Origin: Felixounavirus LF110P4
Sequence record: OZ035790.1
Length of the DNA stretch: 64,000 nucleotides
Reading direction: 5' to 3' (one strand)
This document shows positions 58,325-63,585 of this stretch, piece by piece. The notes below the pieces were generated by a model. That model had not been told where the DNA came from, did not search any database, and saw only the letters and a list, made by a program, of their open reading frames with translations. The first letter of the stretch is position 1, and each line of letters opens with the position of its first letter. A program made the translations under genes and the position numbers.

Positions 58325-58401
58325 CTCTGTTTAGCTCAGCTTGGTAGAGCGTTCCGTTTGGGGCGGTAAGGCCGGAGGTTCAAGTCCTCCAACAGAGACC
58401 A
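58325..58401 (+). tRNA. tRNA-Pro (anticodon UGG)
   Basis: Manual cloverleaf: acceptor CTCTGTT/AACAGAG, T-arm GGAGGttcaagtCCTCC, anticodon loop TTTGGGG, CCA encoded. Confidence 0.6.
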
Positions 58402-58408
58402 AATTAAT

Positions 58409-58486
58409 GTTCCAGTAGACAAAATGGTAAAGTCACCACTCTTTCAAAGTGGATATTTGAGGGTTCAAATCCCTTCTGGAACGCCA
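58409..58486 (+). tRNA. tRNA-Glu (UUC)
   Basis: Acceptor GTTCCAG/CTGGAAC, anticodon stem CCACT/AGTGG, loop CTTTCAA, T-loop TTCAAAT. Confidence 0.6.
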
Positions 58487-58493
58487 GTTTTGA

Positions 58494-58565
58494 CAGAAGA
58501 CCAATTACAGCAAACTTAATCTACTCATCTGAAAGTTAATCGGACAAAGAAGATATTTGGTCTGG
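58494..58565 (+). ncRNA. candidate structured RNA element 1 (bulged closing stem CAGAAGACCAA/TTGGTCTGG)
   Basis: 5' CAGAAGACCAATTACAGCAA and 3' TTGGTCTGG inverted repeat; member of a 4-copy family with covarying stem. Confidence 0.35.
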
Positions 58566-58576
58566 TCATTAAGAAT

Positions 58577-58653
58577 TGCGGGTATAGAGAAAGGGCGTCT
58601 CACATGTCTCATTAGCATGGTATCGGCAGGTTCGACTCCTGCACCCGCCTCCA
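58577..58653 (+). tRNA. tRNA with CAU anticodon (Met/fMet/Ile2 type)
   Basis: T-arm GCAGGttcgactCCTGC, acceptor TGCGGGT/ACCCGCC with 1-72 mismatch, anticodon loop CTCATTA; structure partly irregular. Confidence 0.45.
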
Positions 58654-58659
58654 AATTTA

Positions 58660-58724
58660 CAGAAGACCGTTTACAGCAATATTTATTAAGTTTTTAGCGG
58701 AAAAAATTGAAAGATACGGTCTGG
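58660..58724 (+). ncRNA. candidate structured RNA element 2
   Basis: 5' CAGAAGACCGTTTACAGCAA and 3' ACGGTCTGG; stem covaries (CGT/ACG versus CAA/TTG) relative to element 1. Confidence 0.35.
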
Positions 58725-58737
58725 TAATACTAAACAT

Positions 58738-58814
58738 GGTTAGGAAGCACATAAGGTATGTGCGGTCGCCTGTTAAGCGAATGGCACAGGGTTCGAATCC
58801 CTGACTAACCGCCA
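58738..58814 (+). tRNA. tRNA-Asn (GUU)
   Basis: D-stem GCAC/GTGC, anticodon loop CTGTTAA, T-arm CAGGGttcgaatCCCTG, CCA encoded. Confidence 0.6.
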
Positions 58815-58823
58815 AATTTAAAT

Positions 58824-58911
58824 GTGTCGTTATCCCGTAGATGGTAGCGGTGGGGACTGTAAATCCCTTGTCATTGAGACTCGGTAGGTTCGACTCCTAC
58901 ACGGCACACCA
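58824..58911 (+). tRNA. tRNA-Tyr (GUA), class II
   Basis: 88 nt with long variable arm; anticodon stem-loop GGGGActgtaaaTCCCT; T-arm GTAGGttcgactCCTAC. Confidence 0.6.
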
Positions 58912-58916
58912 ATAAA

Positions 58917-58994
58917 GGTTATGTAGTTTAATTTGGTTAAAATACTCCCCTGTCACGGGAGATGATGAGGGTTCAAATCCCTTCGTAACCGCCA
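58917..58994 (+). tRNA. tRNA-Asp (GUC)
   Basis: Anticodon stem-loop CTCCCctgtcacGGGAG; T-loop TTCAAAT; CCA encoded. Confidence 0.65.
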
Positions 58995-59055
58995 ATTTTG
59001 AGAGGGCTATTTAACCCCTCCCTTAAAGAGTTCTTACGAGTATTCTTTAAAGGAG

Positions 59056-59129
59056 CAGAAGACCAAATTCAGCAAGTTACTTAAAATTTCAAGCCAATTT
59101 AATTTTGAAAAATTTAAAACTTGGTCTGG
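59056..59129 (+). ncRNA. candidate structured RNA element 3
   Basis: 5' CAGAAGACCAAATTCAGCAA and 3' TTGGTCTGG closing stem. Confidence 0.35.
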
Positions 59130-59142
59130 CTCAACAAATTTA

Positions 59143-59272
59143 CAGAAGACCGTTTACAGCAAAACTTAAACAATCTATTTCTCGGTAAAGAAAAGGCGAA
59201 GGTTCGATTCCTTCACTCGGCAGATGTCGAGTTGGTGTAATGGTAGCACTTAAGATGATAAACAACGGTCTG
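59143..59272 (+). ncRNA. candidate Y RNA-like (YrlA-type) RNA with circularly permuted tRNA-like module
   Basis: Closing stem CAGAAGACCGTT/AACGGTCTGG; internal order T-arm GAAGGttcgattCCTTC, acceptor-3' ACTCGGC, loop, acceptor-5' GTCGAGT, D-arm GTGtaatggtagCAC. Confidence 0.4.
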
Positions 59273-61428: not shown

Positions 61429-61671
61429 ATGCAAACATTAATCGTCGTTGAACATGAAAACCCCAATAGTATTGAGTTTGTAAGGGTTCCCACTATAGAT
61501 ACCCACATTTTCTTGAAAGTCGGATGGGAATGCGACCCAATAAAAGTAGGGAAATTTCTTGGTCATTACTTTGGTGGAAGACAATTTAAAAGTATCAATT
61601 TTGAGACAGTGTTACCAGAAAACTCAGAAACAGACAATAATACTTACCTCCTTACGAGGATTAGACAATGA
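61429..61671 (+). CDS. hypothetical protein
   Basis: 80 aa ORF with AAGAGG RBS, embedded in tRNA cluster. Confidence 0.45.
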   Translation: MQTLIVVEHENPNSIEFVRVPTIDTHIFLKVGWECDPIKVGKFLGHYFGGRQFKSINFETVLPENSETDNNTYLLTRIRQ

Positions 61672-62225
61672 GATACTTAAAATATGTTTCATGGATTTTC
61701 TTAGCTTTGCTAGAACCATTTGCAGCAGCCCTAGCAGTCATCTTAGCACCTTTCGTAGTTCCATTCTACAGTGAGAAGAAAGGACATCTACCTTTTGGAT
61801 TCAGATGGATGGAGACCTATGACAACCCGATTGATGGTGATGAAGGCCACGTTAAAAGATGGGCTAAGATTAGAAAGATTGGTAAGCTGGGTGTCTACAT
61901 GCAGAGAGTTGGATGGCTCTGGAGAAACAAAGCTTATAACTTATCTTACCATGTATTAGGAAGAGATGTAAAAGATGTTACTAAGTGGAAAGGTAATATC
62001 AACGTAAGTTCTAACCCTGAAGATAATCAGACTGGTTATCTCCTAATGTGGAACAGTAATGCTTGGGGATTATTCGCTTTTATCCCATCAATTAAAGTCT
62101 TTGGTAAACAGTTTTACTGGAGAATTTATATTGGATGGAAACTAAAAAGTGTTGTCCCAGAAGAAAGAGCATTCTCAAGGGAAAGAGTTATGTTGGCATT
62201 CTTTATTCATCCACTGAGAAAGTAA
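61668..62225 (+). CDS. hypothetical membrane protein
   Basis: 185 aa; N-terminal hydrophobic segment WIFLALLEPFAAALAVILAPFVVPF; embedded in tRNA cluster. Confidence 0.45.
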   Translation: MRYLKYVSWIFLALLEPFAAALAVILAPFVVPFYSEKKGHLPFGFRWMETYDNPIDGDEGHVKRWAKIRKIGKLGVYMQRVGWLWRNKAYNLSYHVLGRDVKDVTKWKGNINVSSNPEDNQTGYLLMWNSNAWGLFAFIPSIKVFGKQFYWRIYIGWKLKSVVPEERAFSRERVMLAFFIHPLRK

Positions 62226-62233
62226 AGATTTAA

Positions 62234-62309
62234 AGGGGATTAGTTTACAAGGTTAAAACCTCGGTCTTTGAAATCGAAGAAGTTGGTTCAATTCCAACAT
62301 CCCCCGCCA
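62234..62309 (+). tRNA. tRNA-Gln (UUG)
   Basis: Anticodon stem TCGGT/ATCGA, loop CTTTGAA; T-arm GTTGGttcaattCCAAC; weak 1-72 pair. Confidence 0.55.
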
Positions 62310-62311
62310 AT

Positions 62312-62390
62312 GCTCCATTACTCCAATTGGCAGAGAGGCCAGACTTAAAATCTGTGTTATGTATCGGTTCGAATCCGATATGGAGTACCA
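62312..62390 (+). tRNA. tRNA with UAA anticodon (Leu by anticodon; short variable arm)
   Basis: Anticodon loop CTTAAAA; T-arm ATCGGttcgaatCCGAT; discriminator A73. Confidence 0.45.
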
Positions 62391-62395
62391 AATTT

Positions 62396-62471
62396 AGCGG
62401 TATAGCATAACTGGCAATGCAACAGTCTCTGAAGCTGTCCTATTAAGGTTCAAATCCTTATGCCGCTGCCA
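62396..62471 (+). tRNA. tRNA-Gln (CUG)
   Basis: Anticodon stem ACAGT/GCTGT, loop CTCTGAA; T-arm TAAGGttcaaatCCTTA. Confidence 0.55.
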
Positions 62472-62502
62472 CTTCTAAGGGTTCTTACGAGAGTCCTTAA
62501 AT

Positions 62503-62578
62503 GTGGCCTTATCATAAATGGTAATGACCCATGCTGTGAACATGGTCTATACGGGTTCAAATCCCGTAGGTCACCCCA
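62503..62578 (+). tRNA. tRNA-His (GUG)
   Basis: Anticodon stem-loop CCATGctgtgaaCATGG; discriminator C73; T-arm ACGGGttcaaatCCCGT. Confidence 0.6.
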
Positions 62579-62583
62579 ATTTA

Positions 62584-62660
62584 TAGTCCAAGTAGCTTAT
62601 ATGGTTAAAGCGCGTGTCTGAAAAACATGAGAAGAGGGTTCAAATCCCACTGGACTACCA
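62584..62660 (+). tRNA. tRNA-Phe (GAA)
   Basis: Anticodon stem CGTGT/ACATG, loop CTGAAAA; T-loop TTCAAAT. Confidence 0.55.
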
Positions 62661-62676
62661 ATTTCAAAGGTGCTTA

Positions 62677-63411
62677 ATGAAAGAGATGACAGAACAAGGT
62701 AAGGAGATTTTTAATCTCTTAAAAACCGGTAAAGGGTTTTCTAACCCACTTATTACTGGTGCAGCAGTTCTCGGTGGAACCGTAGCTGCCTCTACATCAC
62801 TTGTAAGCTCTATTAGCTCTGTAACAGACCCTACAATGAAGGAGAAACTTGTTGCTGCTGGACTTACAACAGTCCTTCTAAACAGCTTTACAACAAGCCT
62901 GACAAGCACTACAGCAACCACTAAGACCTTAACAGATTATGGTCAAAAGTCTATTGATGAGTTTTCATCACGTATGCAGGTAGCAAAGGGATACTCCAAT
63001 GTTATGGGTGCAGCAGGAGAACAAGTTGGTTGTACACCATTCAGTGGTATTATGGGTGTTGCTACAGAGTATGGTCAAAAAGCTATTGACACGATTAACA
63101 GCACACTAGATAGTGTTAACGATGTGTTAAGTGACTTACAAGATGCTATTGATAAGGGTCTTGATACTGTTTCTGATTTAGCTAACCAAGCTGTCAGTAA
63201 GATTAATGAAGGTATCTCAAAGATTACAGCTTATGCAGATGAAGTGGTGCAGATGATTGAAGAAGAAGCTGCCCTTATTGCAGAGTACCTTAAAACGAAT
63301 ATCAATGGGTTCTTAGCAGGTATCTTACCAGATTGGTTTGATGATGCCTGTAAAACTGGTGTAATTGACACTATTGCAACACCAGAAATGAAGAGCGCAT
63401 TACAGAAATAA
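62677..63411 (+). CDS. hypothetical Ser/Thr-rich protein
   Basis: Start set at ATG 62677 with AAAGG RBS, downstream of tRNA-Phe (track ORF begins at an upstream GTG inside the tRNA); Ser/Thr/Ala-rich N-terminal half. Confidence 0.45.
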   Translation: MKEMTEQGKEIFNLLKTGKGFSNPLITGAAVLGGTVAASTSLVSSISSVTDPTMKEKLVAAGLTTVLLNSFTTSLTSTTATTKTLTDYGQKSIDEFSSRMQVAKGYSNVMGAAGEQVGCTPFSGIMGVATEYGQKAIDTINSTLDSVNDVLSDLQDAIDKGLDTVSDLANQAVSKINEGISKITAYADEVVQMIEEEAALIAEYLKTNINGFLAGILPDWFDDACKTGVIDTIATPEMKSALQK

Positions 63412-63412
63412 T

Positions 63413-63505
63413 GGAAGATTAACCCTAAAAGGTAAGGGAGCAGTTTGCTAAACTGCCAGTAGCTGAGAAATCGGTGTACCAGTTCAAGTCTGGTATCTTC
63501 CTCCA
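63413..63505 (+). tRNA. tRNA-Ser (GCU), class II
   Basis: 93 nt with long variable arm; anticodon stem-loop GCAGTttgctaaACTGC; T-arm ACCAGttcaagtCTGGT. Confidence 0.6.
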
Positions 63506-63509
63506 ATTT

Positions 63510-63585
63510 GAATCCGTGACAGAAATGGCTATGTGCCTGTCTGCAAAACAGGTTTATAAGGGTTCAAGTCCCTTCGGATTCTCCA
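63510..63585 (+). tRNA. tRNA-Cys (GCA)
   Basis: Anticodon stem-loop CCTGTctgcaaaACAGG; discriminator U73; T-arm AAGGGttcaagtCCCTT. Confidence 0.6.

Follow-up and report, generated by a model that had tools for sequence, protein, structure and literature searches.

Short-armed leucine tRNA genes in the tRNA cluster of a Felix O1-like phage

Felix O1-like phages carry clusters of transfer RNA (tRNA) genes, and the published counts for Felix O1, wV8, Moogle and Sf14 run from 21 to 26 (PMC3185647, PMC2674420, PMC4319497, PMC12482277). The 64,000 nucleotides (nt) of Felixounavirus LF110P4 analysed here (record OZ035790.1; 'the window' below means this whole stretch) come from a genome of this kind, whose tRNA cluster lies at 58325-63585 on the + strand. 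Our subject is three leucine tRNA (tRNALeu) genes in that cluster, which encode molecules without the long variable arm of canonical class II tRNALeu. They lie on the + strand at 60565-60643 (anticodon UAG), 61144-61221 (CAA) and 62312-62390 (UAA), and were found by both ARAGORN and Rfam. The genes are public and annotated, and short-armed (type I) tRNALeu is an already known kind of molecule, from mitochondria and Streptomyces.

The region itself is the standard, already known tRNA cluster of Felix O1-like phages. The 5.3-kb stretch 58300-63600 has matches in 407 phage records, and identity over its full 5.3 kb is 95–97% in Escherichia phages EC6, KhF1 and LF82P3, Shigella phage Z31 and other members of Felixounavirus. 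The annotated relatives pEP20, VpaE1 and SUSP2 have an identical tRNA gene set and order (Pro-Glu-Met-Asn-Tyr-Asp ... Ser-Cys), and both nucleotide identity and conserved gene order place the region among the Ounavirinae tRNA clusters. ARAGORN called 26 tRNA genes in 58325-63585, all on the + strand, and the Rfam tRNA model recognised 24 of the 26 at its gathering score, including all three leucine genes. The strong tRNA-model scores, the 95–97% identity to annotated clusters and the covariation described below together mean that these calls are not due to chance.

The rules by which Escherichia coli leucyl-tRNA synthetase (LeuRS) recognises its tRNA have been reviewed (PMC9976931). Leucine identity consists of A73, the A15-U48 pair, G18G19, A20a and the U8-A14 pair; A73 is crucial, and the anticodon is not. 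Systematic evolution of ligands by exponential enrichment (SELEX) selected A15-U48, G18G19 and A20a. According to the same review, the sequence and fold of the long arm are uncorrelated with leucylation, and armless variants stay active.

Structure of the three short leucine tRNAs

An earlier note on this DNA had described three short leucine tRNAs that lack the long variable arm and keep A73. ARAGORN agrees with that description in coordinates, anticodons and length (78–79 nt). Including the encoded CCA, Leu(UAG) is 79 nt long, Leu(CAA) 78 nt and Leu(UAA) 79 nt, which leaves 75–76 nt to the discriminator. In the ARAGORN structures the variable regions are unpaired and form no variable stem, with 5 nt in Leu(UAG), 5–6 nt in Leu(CAA) and 7 nt in Leu(UAA). 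The same program returned the leucine anticodons as the note had given them and no overlooked long variable arm in any of the three. The arm of a canonical class II tRNALeu is longer than 10 nt and usually stemmed, and the three phage tRNAs have nothing of the sort. The long arms that the note had seen in tRNA-Tyr and tRNA-Ser are also present according to ARAGORN, in molecules of 88 nt (Tyr) and of 90 and 93 nt (Ser).

In other respects the three molecules are complete. Each has A73, as canonical class II tRNALeu does, followed by an encoded CCA; each has an intact 7-nt anticodon loop with U33 and A37, and intact acceptor and T arms. Directly 5' of the T stem, each molecule has a U, the partner of A15 in an A15-U48 pair. 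The G3.U70 pair is absent from all of them, positions 3-70 being U-A, U-A and G-C. A leucine anticodon, a variable loop of 4–7 nt and an otherwise complete cloverleaf define type I tRNALeu, and all three have this form.

The D arm and core of class II tRNALeu are found in Leu(CAA) and Leu(UAA), and in part in Leu(UAG). Leu(CAA) has a D stem of 3 base pairs (bp), UCC/GGA, the D loop CAAUUGGCAGA, the variable sequence CUAGU (ACUAGU counting position 44), U48 and a G1-C72 pair; it scores 43.6 bits with Rfam, is identical in pEP20 and is one base off in SUSP2. Leu(UAA) has the D stem CUC/GAG, the same D loop CAAUUGGCAGA, a 7-nt unpaired variable region, U48 and a G1.U72 pair; it scores 47.5 bits and is identical in pEP20 and SUSP2. 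Both have U8, a 3-bp D stem and an 11-nt D loop, and both keep U8-A14, A15-U48 and G18G19. Thus, all the E. coli LeuRS identity elements listed in the review are present in these two tRNAs.

The 11-nt D loop CAAUUGGCAGA aligns position for position with those of E. coli leuQ, leuZ, leuX and leuW and of the T4 tRNALeu; the host loops compared (leuQPV, leuZ, leuX and leuW of E. coli K-12) read GAAUUGGUAGA, GAAUCGGUAGA or AAAUUGGUAGA. The E. coli genes and the T4 tRNALeu share with the phage CAA and UAA copies A73, U8, the 3-bp D stem, the 11-nt D loop with A14, A15, G18G19 and the extra A, and U48. They differ in length, the host and T4 molecules having 85–87 nt and an arm of at least 12 nt, stemmed in most copies, where the phage ones have 5–7 unpaired nt. 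The CAA and UAA copies therefore depart from host tRNALeu essentially by the missing variable stem-loop.

From these features we infer, with a probability of roughly three in four, that the genes encode working type I leucine tRNAs that are charged by the LeuRS of the host and used in translation. They would be transcribed together with the rest of the cluster, with the CCA end already encoded. The LeuRS of the host, E. coli or Salmonella, would then leucylate them by reading A73 and the corner of the D and T loops (U8-A14, A15-U48, the position of G18G19 and the extra D-loop A), and would need neither the anticodon nor a long arm. The charged tRNAs would decode UUA and UUG (anticodons UAA and CAA) and CUA/CUN (UAG). 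The codons TTA, TTG and CTA make up 49% of the leucine codons in 50 long open reading frames of the window, whose genome has 39% G+C, and they are much less used in E. coli. The long variable stem-loop would have been lost, and the rest of the leucine-specific architecture kept, in a widespread short-armed lineage. The altered synthetase recognition that the earlier note had considered is not required, as the leucine identity read by E. coli LeuRS lies in A73 and the D/T-loop core (PMC9976931), and these elements are retained.

A family of short leucine tRNAs in phages and bacteria

Short leucine tRNAs occur in pEP20 (77, 78 and 79 nt), in SUSP2 (78, 78 and 79 nt), in Erwinia phage SunLIRen (CAA, 77 nt; AAG, 78 nt; UAA, 77 nt) and in the T5-like phage BF23 (UAG, 77 nt), and Suspvirus and Kolesnikvirus have them as well. 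Ordinary long-armed leucine tRNAs are found in T4 (87 nt) and in the phi92-like phage PD06 (85 and 86 nt). A scan of IMG/VR with the pattern CCAATTGGCAGAG, a gap of 26–46 nt (wide enough for long arms) and GGTTCGAATCC returned at least 120 loci, on contigs of 4 to 536 kb. Among the matches listed, 125 of 131 viral tRNAs with the D-arm bait CCAATTGGCAGAG and the T loop have leucine anticodons according to ARAGORN. These 125 cover all six anticodon types, and not one has a long arm.

A less biased sample consisted of 120 further viral loci, baited by a generic T loop plus CCA. Of its 77 leucine tRNAs, 29 are short and 48 long, or 21 and 40 if those that match this generic bait themselves are set aside; long arms are present in all 47 tRNA-Ser and all 17 tRNA-Tyr. 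Short and long leucine tRNAs stand side by side in 10 of 38 sampled viral loci. The same D-arm pattern was also run against one genome per bacterial species. Among the matches listed there, at least 93 are short leucine tRNAs, and at least 26 are tRNA-Trp of Vibrionaceae that share the motif by chance. Many of the bacterial short genes are solitary and belong to Actinomycetota, among them Streptomyces, Nocardia, Mycolicibacterium, Corynebacterium and Pseudonocardia (anticodons UAA, UAG, CAA and CAG); others sit in dense tRNA arrays (Asanoa, Actinoplanes, Solirubrobacter). The bacterial range of short leucine tRNAs goes far beyond the single Streptomyces case of the literature.

We aligned 150 phage short leucine tRNAs with pairwise identities below 90%, the three window sequences included. 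When the cloverleaf is drawn with three D-stem pairs, 97.4% of the cells are standard pairs, and 20 of the 23 pairs have changed on both sides. The covariation is 0.873, compared with 0.19 in shuffles and at most 0.154 with the partners slid. The tertiary pairs are conserved (U8-A14 in 143, A15-U48 in 142 and G19-C56 in 149 of the 150), and 180 of 192 unique short leucine sequences have A73. The alignment also shows two traits of the family itself. A G1.U72 wobble occurs in 67 of the 150, the UAG and UAA copies of the window among them, whereas there is none in the four E. coli tRNALeu genes compared (leuQPV, leuZ, leuX and leuW). Furthermore, position 13, usually C, can pair with G22 (C-G in 121, G-U in 12 and U-A in 2 of the 150), unlike in E. 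coli tRNALeu, where both are G. In about 91% of the 150, the D stem may thus have a fourth pair, next to which an A would bulge out.

Given the viral and bacterial scans, the short form is a large family and not peculiar to this phage. The earlier note had called the class-I-like leucine tRNAs unusual; they do depart from the textbook rule for bacterial tRNALeu, but they are common in phages and in bacterial genomes, and the short leucine form is a real and widespread family. In the phage-tRNA papers and reviews examined, those on Felix O1-like phages included and the older T5 sequencing work not among them, no earlier notice of a short-armed phage tRNALeu was found. The phage molecules are natural counter-examples, in model coliphage groups, to the rule that the tRNALeu of bacterial systems is always long-armed.

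The survey amounts to a natural experiment across phages, in which leucine tRNAs often lose the arm and serine and tyrosine tRNAs almost never do. That the loss is confined to leucine matches the identity rules of LeuRS and of seryl- and tyrosyl-tRNA synthetase (SerRS, TyrRS). We propose that the arm can be lost in leucine but not in serine and tyrosine tRNAs because only SerRS and bacterial TyrRS depend on it.

The loss might also have been adaptive, a short arm hiding the phage leucine tRNAs from something that recognises long-armed tRNALeu, while leucylation itself may stay normal. The recogniser might be a nuclease, either one with which the host attacks tRNA in defence against phages or one that the phage induces and that degrades host tRNALeu; cross-recognition by SerRS is a third candidate. 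The phage would keep leucine decoding while host tRNALeu is attacked. Yudelevich is said to have reported in 1971 that an E. coli tRNALeu is cleaved on T4 infection, which our literature search did not confirm. We consider adaptive loss unlikely. Several unrelated phage groups have kept the short form, which makes up about one third of viral leucine tRNAs; where it coexists with the long form it is evidently maintained beside it; and structural changes are known to let phage tRNAs counter tRNA-targeting defences (eLife 2023, PMC10264068). However, no nuclease aimed at the variable arm of tRNALeu was identified in the window or in the literature examined, and evasion of phage defence is no obvious driver for the solitary short genes on many bacterial chromosomes. 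Neutral loss of a dispensable arm accounts equally well for the difference between leucine and serine or tyrosine.

A related and doubtful proposition is that short tRNALeu is a distinct selected form, which lytic enterobacterial phages (Felix O1-like and T5-like) bring into hosts that have only the long-armed one. The short molecules are foreign to the tRNA set of the host, since all host tRNALeu is long-armed. If the proposition were true, E. coli-type LeuRS would charge natural type I tRNALeu efficiently, contrary to a published statement, and loss of the arm would be advantageous, for example by making the phage resistant, in the course of infection or defence, to a nuclease or other factor that recognises host tRNALeu by its long arm. 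If arm loss were an anti-nuclease adaptation, it would be a new structural route for phage tRNAs past tRNA-targeting systems.

Leucine identity and the irregular UAG copy

A covariance model built from the 150 short leucine tRNAs, slightly circular in that the three window sequences are among its training rows, gives 77.8 bits to Leu(CAA) and 77.1 bits to Leu(UAA), against 58.9 bits for the best non-leucine tRNA of the window (Glu). These two copies therefore score above the other isotypes as members of the short family, and Leu(UAG) scores 58.8 bits. The long-armed tRNALeu of E. coli and that of T4 reach 50–63.5 bits despite the inserted arm. The model is only moderately specific, since E. 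coli tRNA-Trp reaches 59.8 bits. A loose regular expression for the D arm was rejected as a leucine signature because it is too permissive, matching 79% of short leucine tRNAs, 69% of long ones and about 7% of other isotypes.

These scores bear on the misassignment that the earlier note had raised, in which the genes would have leucine anticodons and be charged with another amino acid. A short variable loop is typical of non-leucine tRNAs, and both the near tie between Leu(UAG) and tRNA-Glu and the limited specificity of the model point the same way. All the same, such an identity is scarcely credible. A73 and a leucine-type D arm are present, G3.U70 is absent, and the D-arm motif goes with leucine anticodons in the 125 of 131 viral tRNAs listed above. 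In the related Moogle-like phage Sf14, the isotype models of tRNAscan-SE place leucine first for Leu_TAG, Leu_CAA and Leu_TAA (PMC12482277). Another identity would, moreover, lead to mistranslation, because host tRNALeu reads the same codons.

As a check on recoding, the phage NrdA and NrdD proteins were aligned with their E. coli orthologs (32–35% identity). Codons TTA, TTG and CTA stand opposite leucine in 23 of 53 cases and opposite L, I, V, M or F in 38 of 53; for the remaining leucine codons the counts are 21 and 42 of 64. Recoding of UUA, UUG and CUA was rejected on this ground, as these codons face leucine at least as often as the others do. For Leu(CAA) and Leu(UAA), misassignment thus appears unlikely, judging from the leucine-type D arm and core with the published E. 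coli LeuRS determinants, the margin of about 18 bits in the model, the isotype ranking in Sf14 and the codon alignment.

Several points weigh against the view that the three genes are working leucine tRNAs charged by the host enzyme. The tRNALeu(CAA) of Streptomyces coelicolor, which is short-armed by nature, was no substrate for E. coli LeuRS, and the enzyme is said to charge only type II tRNALeu, to favour a large variable loop and to contact nucleotides 47f-47i (PMC6614811); efficient charging of an armless tRNA by an enterobacterial LeuRS is therefore not guaranteed. The literature is in disagreement here, the minimal-substrate studies making the arm dispensable and the 2019 study confining E. 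coli LeuRS to type II. Phage Bas63 could do without most of its tRNA genes under laboratory conditions (bioRxiv 10.1101/2024.10.10.617714), and necessity is therefore no argument for function. The circularity of the covariance model belongs here too. The fit of the cluster to the host speaks for that view: its discriminators are mostly of the E. coli type (for example Gly U73, His C73, Cys U73 and Gln G73), but both tRNA-Met(CAU) and tRNA-Ser(GCU) have U73, unlike their E. coli counterparts.

The other points against it concern Leu(UAG), the most irregular of the three, which has the 5-nt variable loop UGCUU, A73 and G1.U72. In its D stem a C.C mismatch stands between an A-U and a G-C pair, and its D loop is oversized at 13 nt. 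It barely passes the Rfam cut-off (30.5 bits against 29), and its 58.8 bits with the short-leucine model leave it unseparated from non-leucine tRNAs (Glu, 58.9). Its ortholog in GenBank MK965970 is labelled 'tRNA-OTHER, pseudo', and the other two are labelled tRNA-Leu there. Annotation pipelines sometimes mark short leucine genes as pseudo or 'OTHER', and awareness of the family would avoid that. Between Leu(UAG) and its SUSP2 counterpart the identity is 92%, and five of the six differences fall in the D arm; it is 68–73% to Leu(UAG) of the T5-like BF23 and 53% to the pEP20 allele. The Leu(UAG) copy with its degenerate D arm may be impaired.

Two further observations were made on this gene. 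The same slot holds two unrelated Leu(UAG) alleles among the Felix O1-like phages (53% identity), the allele of the window being related to the BF23 gene. Within the window's allele, it is the D arm that diverges, the remainder of the molecule being nearly invariant.

Some of the short leucine genes, above all Leu(UAG), could then be pseudogenes, decoys or small RNAs without a part in translation, a possibility that we regard as very unlikely. The mismatched D stem, the large D loop, the concentration of differences in the D arm, the low Rfam score and the pseudo flag in one public record all fit such decay. So do the entirely different allele in the pEP20 slot and the non-tRNA small RNAs scattered among the tRNA genes. 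Against decay, the CAA and UAA copies vary little or not at all from genus to genus and conform to a family with strong covariation, and the anticodon loops (U33, A37), acceptor and T arms and encoded CCA are intact in all three. We retain type I leucine tRNAs charged by host LeuRS as the best explanation.

The surrounding cluster and its relatives

The 26 called genes lie on the + strand in the following order. The first six, from ARAGORN, are tRNA-Pro(UGG) at 58325-58401, tRNA-Glu(UUC) at 58409-58486, tRNA-Met(CAU) at 58577-58653, tRNA-Asn(GUU) at 58738-58814, the long-armed tRNA-Tyr(GUA) at 58824-58911 and tRNA-Asp(GUC) at 58917-58994. Called by ARAGORN and Rfam are tRNA-Lys(UUU) at 59423-59498, a second tRNA-Met(CAU) at 59503-59579, tRNA-Ile(GAU) at 59582-59656 and tRNA-Arg(UCU) at 59904-59980. 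The long-armed tRNA-Ser(UGA), from ARAGORN, follows at 60219-60308; alone in the cluster, it does not encode the complete CCA (its 3' end is G73-C-C-U), and its Rfam score is poor (33.2 bits). Leu(UAG) comes next, and then, again from both programs, tRNA-Lys(CUU) at 60651-60726, tRNA-Ala(UGC) at 60733-60808, tRNA-Gly(UCC) at 60815-60889, tRNA-Thr(UGU) at 60897-60972 and tRNA-Val(UAC) at 61068-61142, the last directly before Leu(CAA). The remaining genes found by both programs are tRNA-Arg(ACG) at 61335-61410, tRNA-Gln(UUG) at 62234-62309, just before Leu(UAA), and then tRNA-Gln(CUG) at 62396-62471, tRNA-His(GUG) at 62503-62578 and tRNA-Phe(GAA) at 62585-62660, with tRNA-Cys(GCA) at 63510-63585 closing the cluster. 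Before it lies the long-armed tRNA-Ser(GCU), from ARAGORN, at 63413-63505.

Three protein genes of unknown function lie within the cluster on the + strand, in an arrangement kept in relatives: an 80-residue protein of PHROG 14202 (61429-61671), a DUF7338 protein (61668-62225) and a DUF7217 protein (62677-63411). A consensus scan predicted two sigma-70-like promoters on the + strand. One, directly upstream of the first tRNA gene, is at 58269-58298 (TTGACA, 18 nt, TAAAGT with TG); the other, within the cluster, is at 59672-59700 (TTGACA, 17 nt, TATAGT; 11/12), and its conservation extends to Erwinia phage SunLIRen.

The earlier note had counted about 27 tRNA genes for all 20 amino acids. The 26 genes called by ARAGORN serve 19 amino acids, tryptophan being absent from the calls, and the 27th is probably an aberrant tRNA-Trp-like gene at 60123-60205 (+ strand), recognised by alignment with E. 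coli trpT and by conservation. Its anticodon loop CUCCAAA, A1-U72, G73 and CCA end are as in trpT, its anticodon arm is almost base for base that of E. coli tRNA-Trp, and it has the marks of tryptophan identity (anticodon CCA, G73, A1-U72). It does not have a canonical cloverleaf: position 8 is G, the D arm exceeds that of trpT by about 6 nt, and G18G19 is missing. In the fold, the acceptor has 8 bp and the T stem 4 bp. The gene is kept in nine relatives, in one of which the anticodon stem AACGG/CCGUU is replaced, with compensation, by GUAAG/CUUAC. ARAGORN did not call it, and Rfam gave only a sub-threshold tRNA-Sec match (24.7 bits, E 0.14). It is a conserved aberrant Trp-like gene and not a confirmed tRNA. 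Related phages have been reported with only 19 amino acids because standard tRNA finders miss it.

Four small-RNA-like elements were recognised on the + strand at 58491-58568, 58657-58727, 59053-59132 and 59140-59276. They share a closing-stem module, (A/G)CAGAAGACC...GGUCUG(G), made of a 4-bp outer stem, an AGA bulge and then AGACCnnn/nnnGGUCU, and all four show conservation across the loci of Felixounavirus and Suspvirus. Inside the fourth, a T arm, an acceptor-like hairpin and a D arm (59198-59249) follow one another in the permuted arrangement known from bacterial YrlA Y RNAs (PMC4201824). A search of Rfam, Y-RNA families included, gave no match to the four elements even at E values up to 5. 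Directly upstream of the cluster, at 56744-58159 on the + strand, lies a gene for a DUF2828+DUF7788 protein (PHROG 'RNA-binding protein'). In Bas63, gp130 is reported, on a comparison of folds, to be Ro60-like and to counter the Ppl defence, and the authors of that preprint guessed that some of the 'tRNAs' might be Y RNAs (bioRxiv 10.1101/2024.10.10.617714). The DUF2828 protein occupies the position of gp130, which is directly upstream of the tRNA cluster in Bas63; the likeness is one of position. A PDB sequence search with the DUF2828 protein gave no Ro60 match. By analogy with Bas63, the gene and the four Y-RNA-like elements look like a phage Ro/Y-RNA module.

A candidate transfer-messenger RNA (tmRNA)-like RNA lies between tRNA-Ile and tRNA-Arg, at 59701-59903 on the + strand, downstream of the near-consensus promoter. 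It contains a tag-like frame at 59750-59782 (+ strand; GCA AAC GAC ... GCU UGA), which reads ANDNVFLAVA followed by a stop. In Erwinia phage SunLIRen the frame reads ANDAQFLAVA followed by two stops; third codon positions have changed synonymously, and compensatory changes are seen in the hairpins further downstream. No evident tRNA-like domain was seen in 59701-59903, Rfam matched only the mRNA-like part of tmRNA, below threshold, and the tmRNA mode of ARAGORN gave nothing at its default or at a 95% threshold. At 80%, it produced permuted-tmRNA models with arms borrowed from neighbouring tRNAs, an architecture that we did not trust. A tmRNA gene found by ARAGORN has been reported for phage Moogle. 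An unrelated 100-kb viral contig has, at about position 4682 on the - strand, a tmRNA-type tag frame, ANDNDVLANEYALAA followed by a stop, so tmRNA-like genes recur in phage tRNA regions. Further non-coding gaps between tRNA genes lie at 59985-60120 and 60310-60560 (+ strand), the latter with a hairpin followed by a run of U (AAAGACCUUUUUAGGUCUUUUU) at about 60463-60485. These gaps may hold additional small RNAs, comparable to the stable RNAs, species 1 and species 2, that T4 has in its tRNA region.

Compared with known systems, the cluster stands closest to those of the other Ounavirinae (Felix O1, wV8, EC6, Bas63, Moogle, Sf14, SUSP2 and phiEa21-4/SunLIRen), with which it shares gene order and 94–97% identity to many public records. 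All three leucine genes are annotated as tRNA-Leu in records of these relatives. There is no substantive difference; the window has the SUSP2-type allele of Leu(UAG) and not the pEP20-type. Outside this group, Leu(UAG) of BF23 likewise has 77 nt, a short variable loop and A73, and its T arm and the start of its 3' acceptor strand are identical to those of the window's Leu(UAG). The BF23 gene differs in its perfect 3-bp D stem (AUG/CAU) and 11-nt D loop, where the copy of the window has a mismatched stem and a 13-nt loop.

Beyond phages, the short variable loop recurs in human mitochondrial tRNALeu(UUR), with A73 and A14 as identity elements (PMC9976931). That tRNA has its own organellar LeuRS and a floppy structure, and no sequence relationship to the phage family; the S. 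coelicolor LeuRS does not charge it (PMC6614811). The type I tRNALeu(CAA) of S. coelicolor is likewise natural, has a 5-nt variable loop and serves a bacterial-type translation system (PMC6614811). Its U8-A14 pair is important, and at least five variable-loop nucleotides, position 48 included, are required (PMC6614811). Among its differences from the phage leucine tRNAs, it has C48 where they have U48. Its cognate LeuRS has a special leucine-specific domain and ignores A73, whereas the phage tRNAs keep A73 and the phage host has an E. coli-type LeuRS. Finally, armless E. coli tRNALeu has been engineered (Asahara 1993/1998; Larkin 2002, per PMC9976931) and is charged if A73 and the D/T-loop contacts are intact. 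Those molecules are laboratory constructs, whereas the phage tRNAs are natural and conserved, with co-adapted cores. By analogy, the engineered armless tRNALeu are a functional precedent for the mechanism proposed here.

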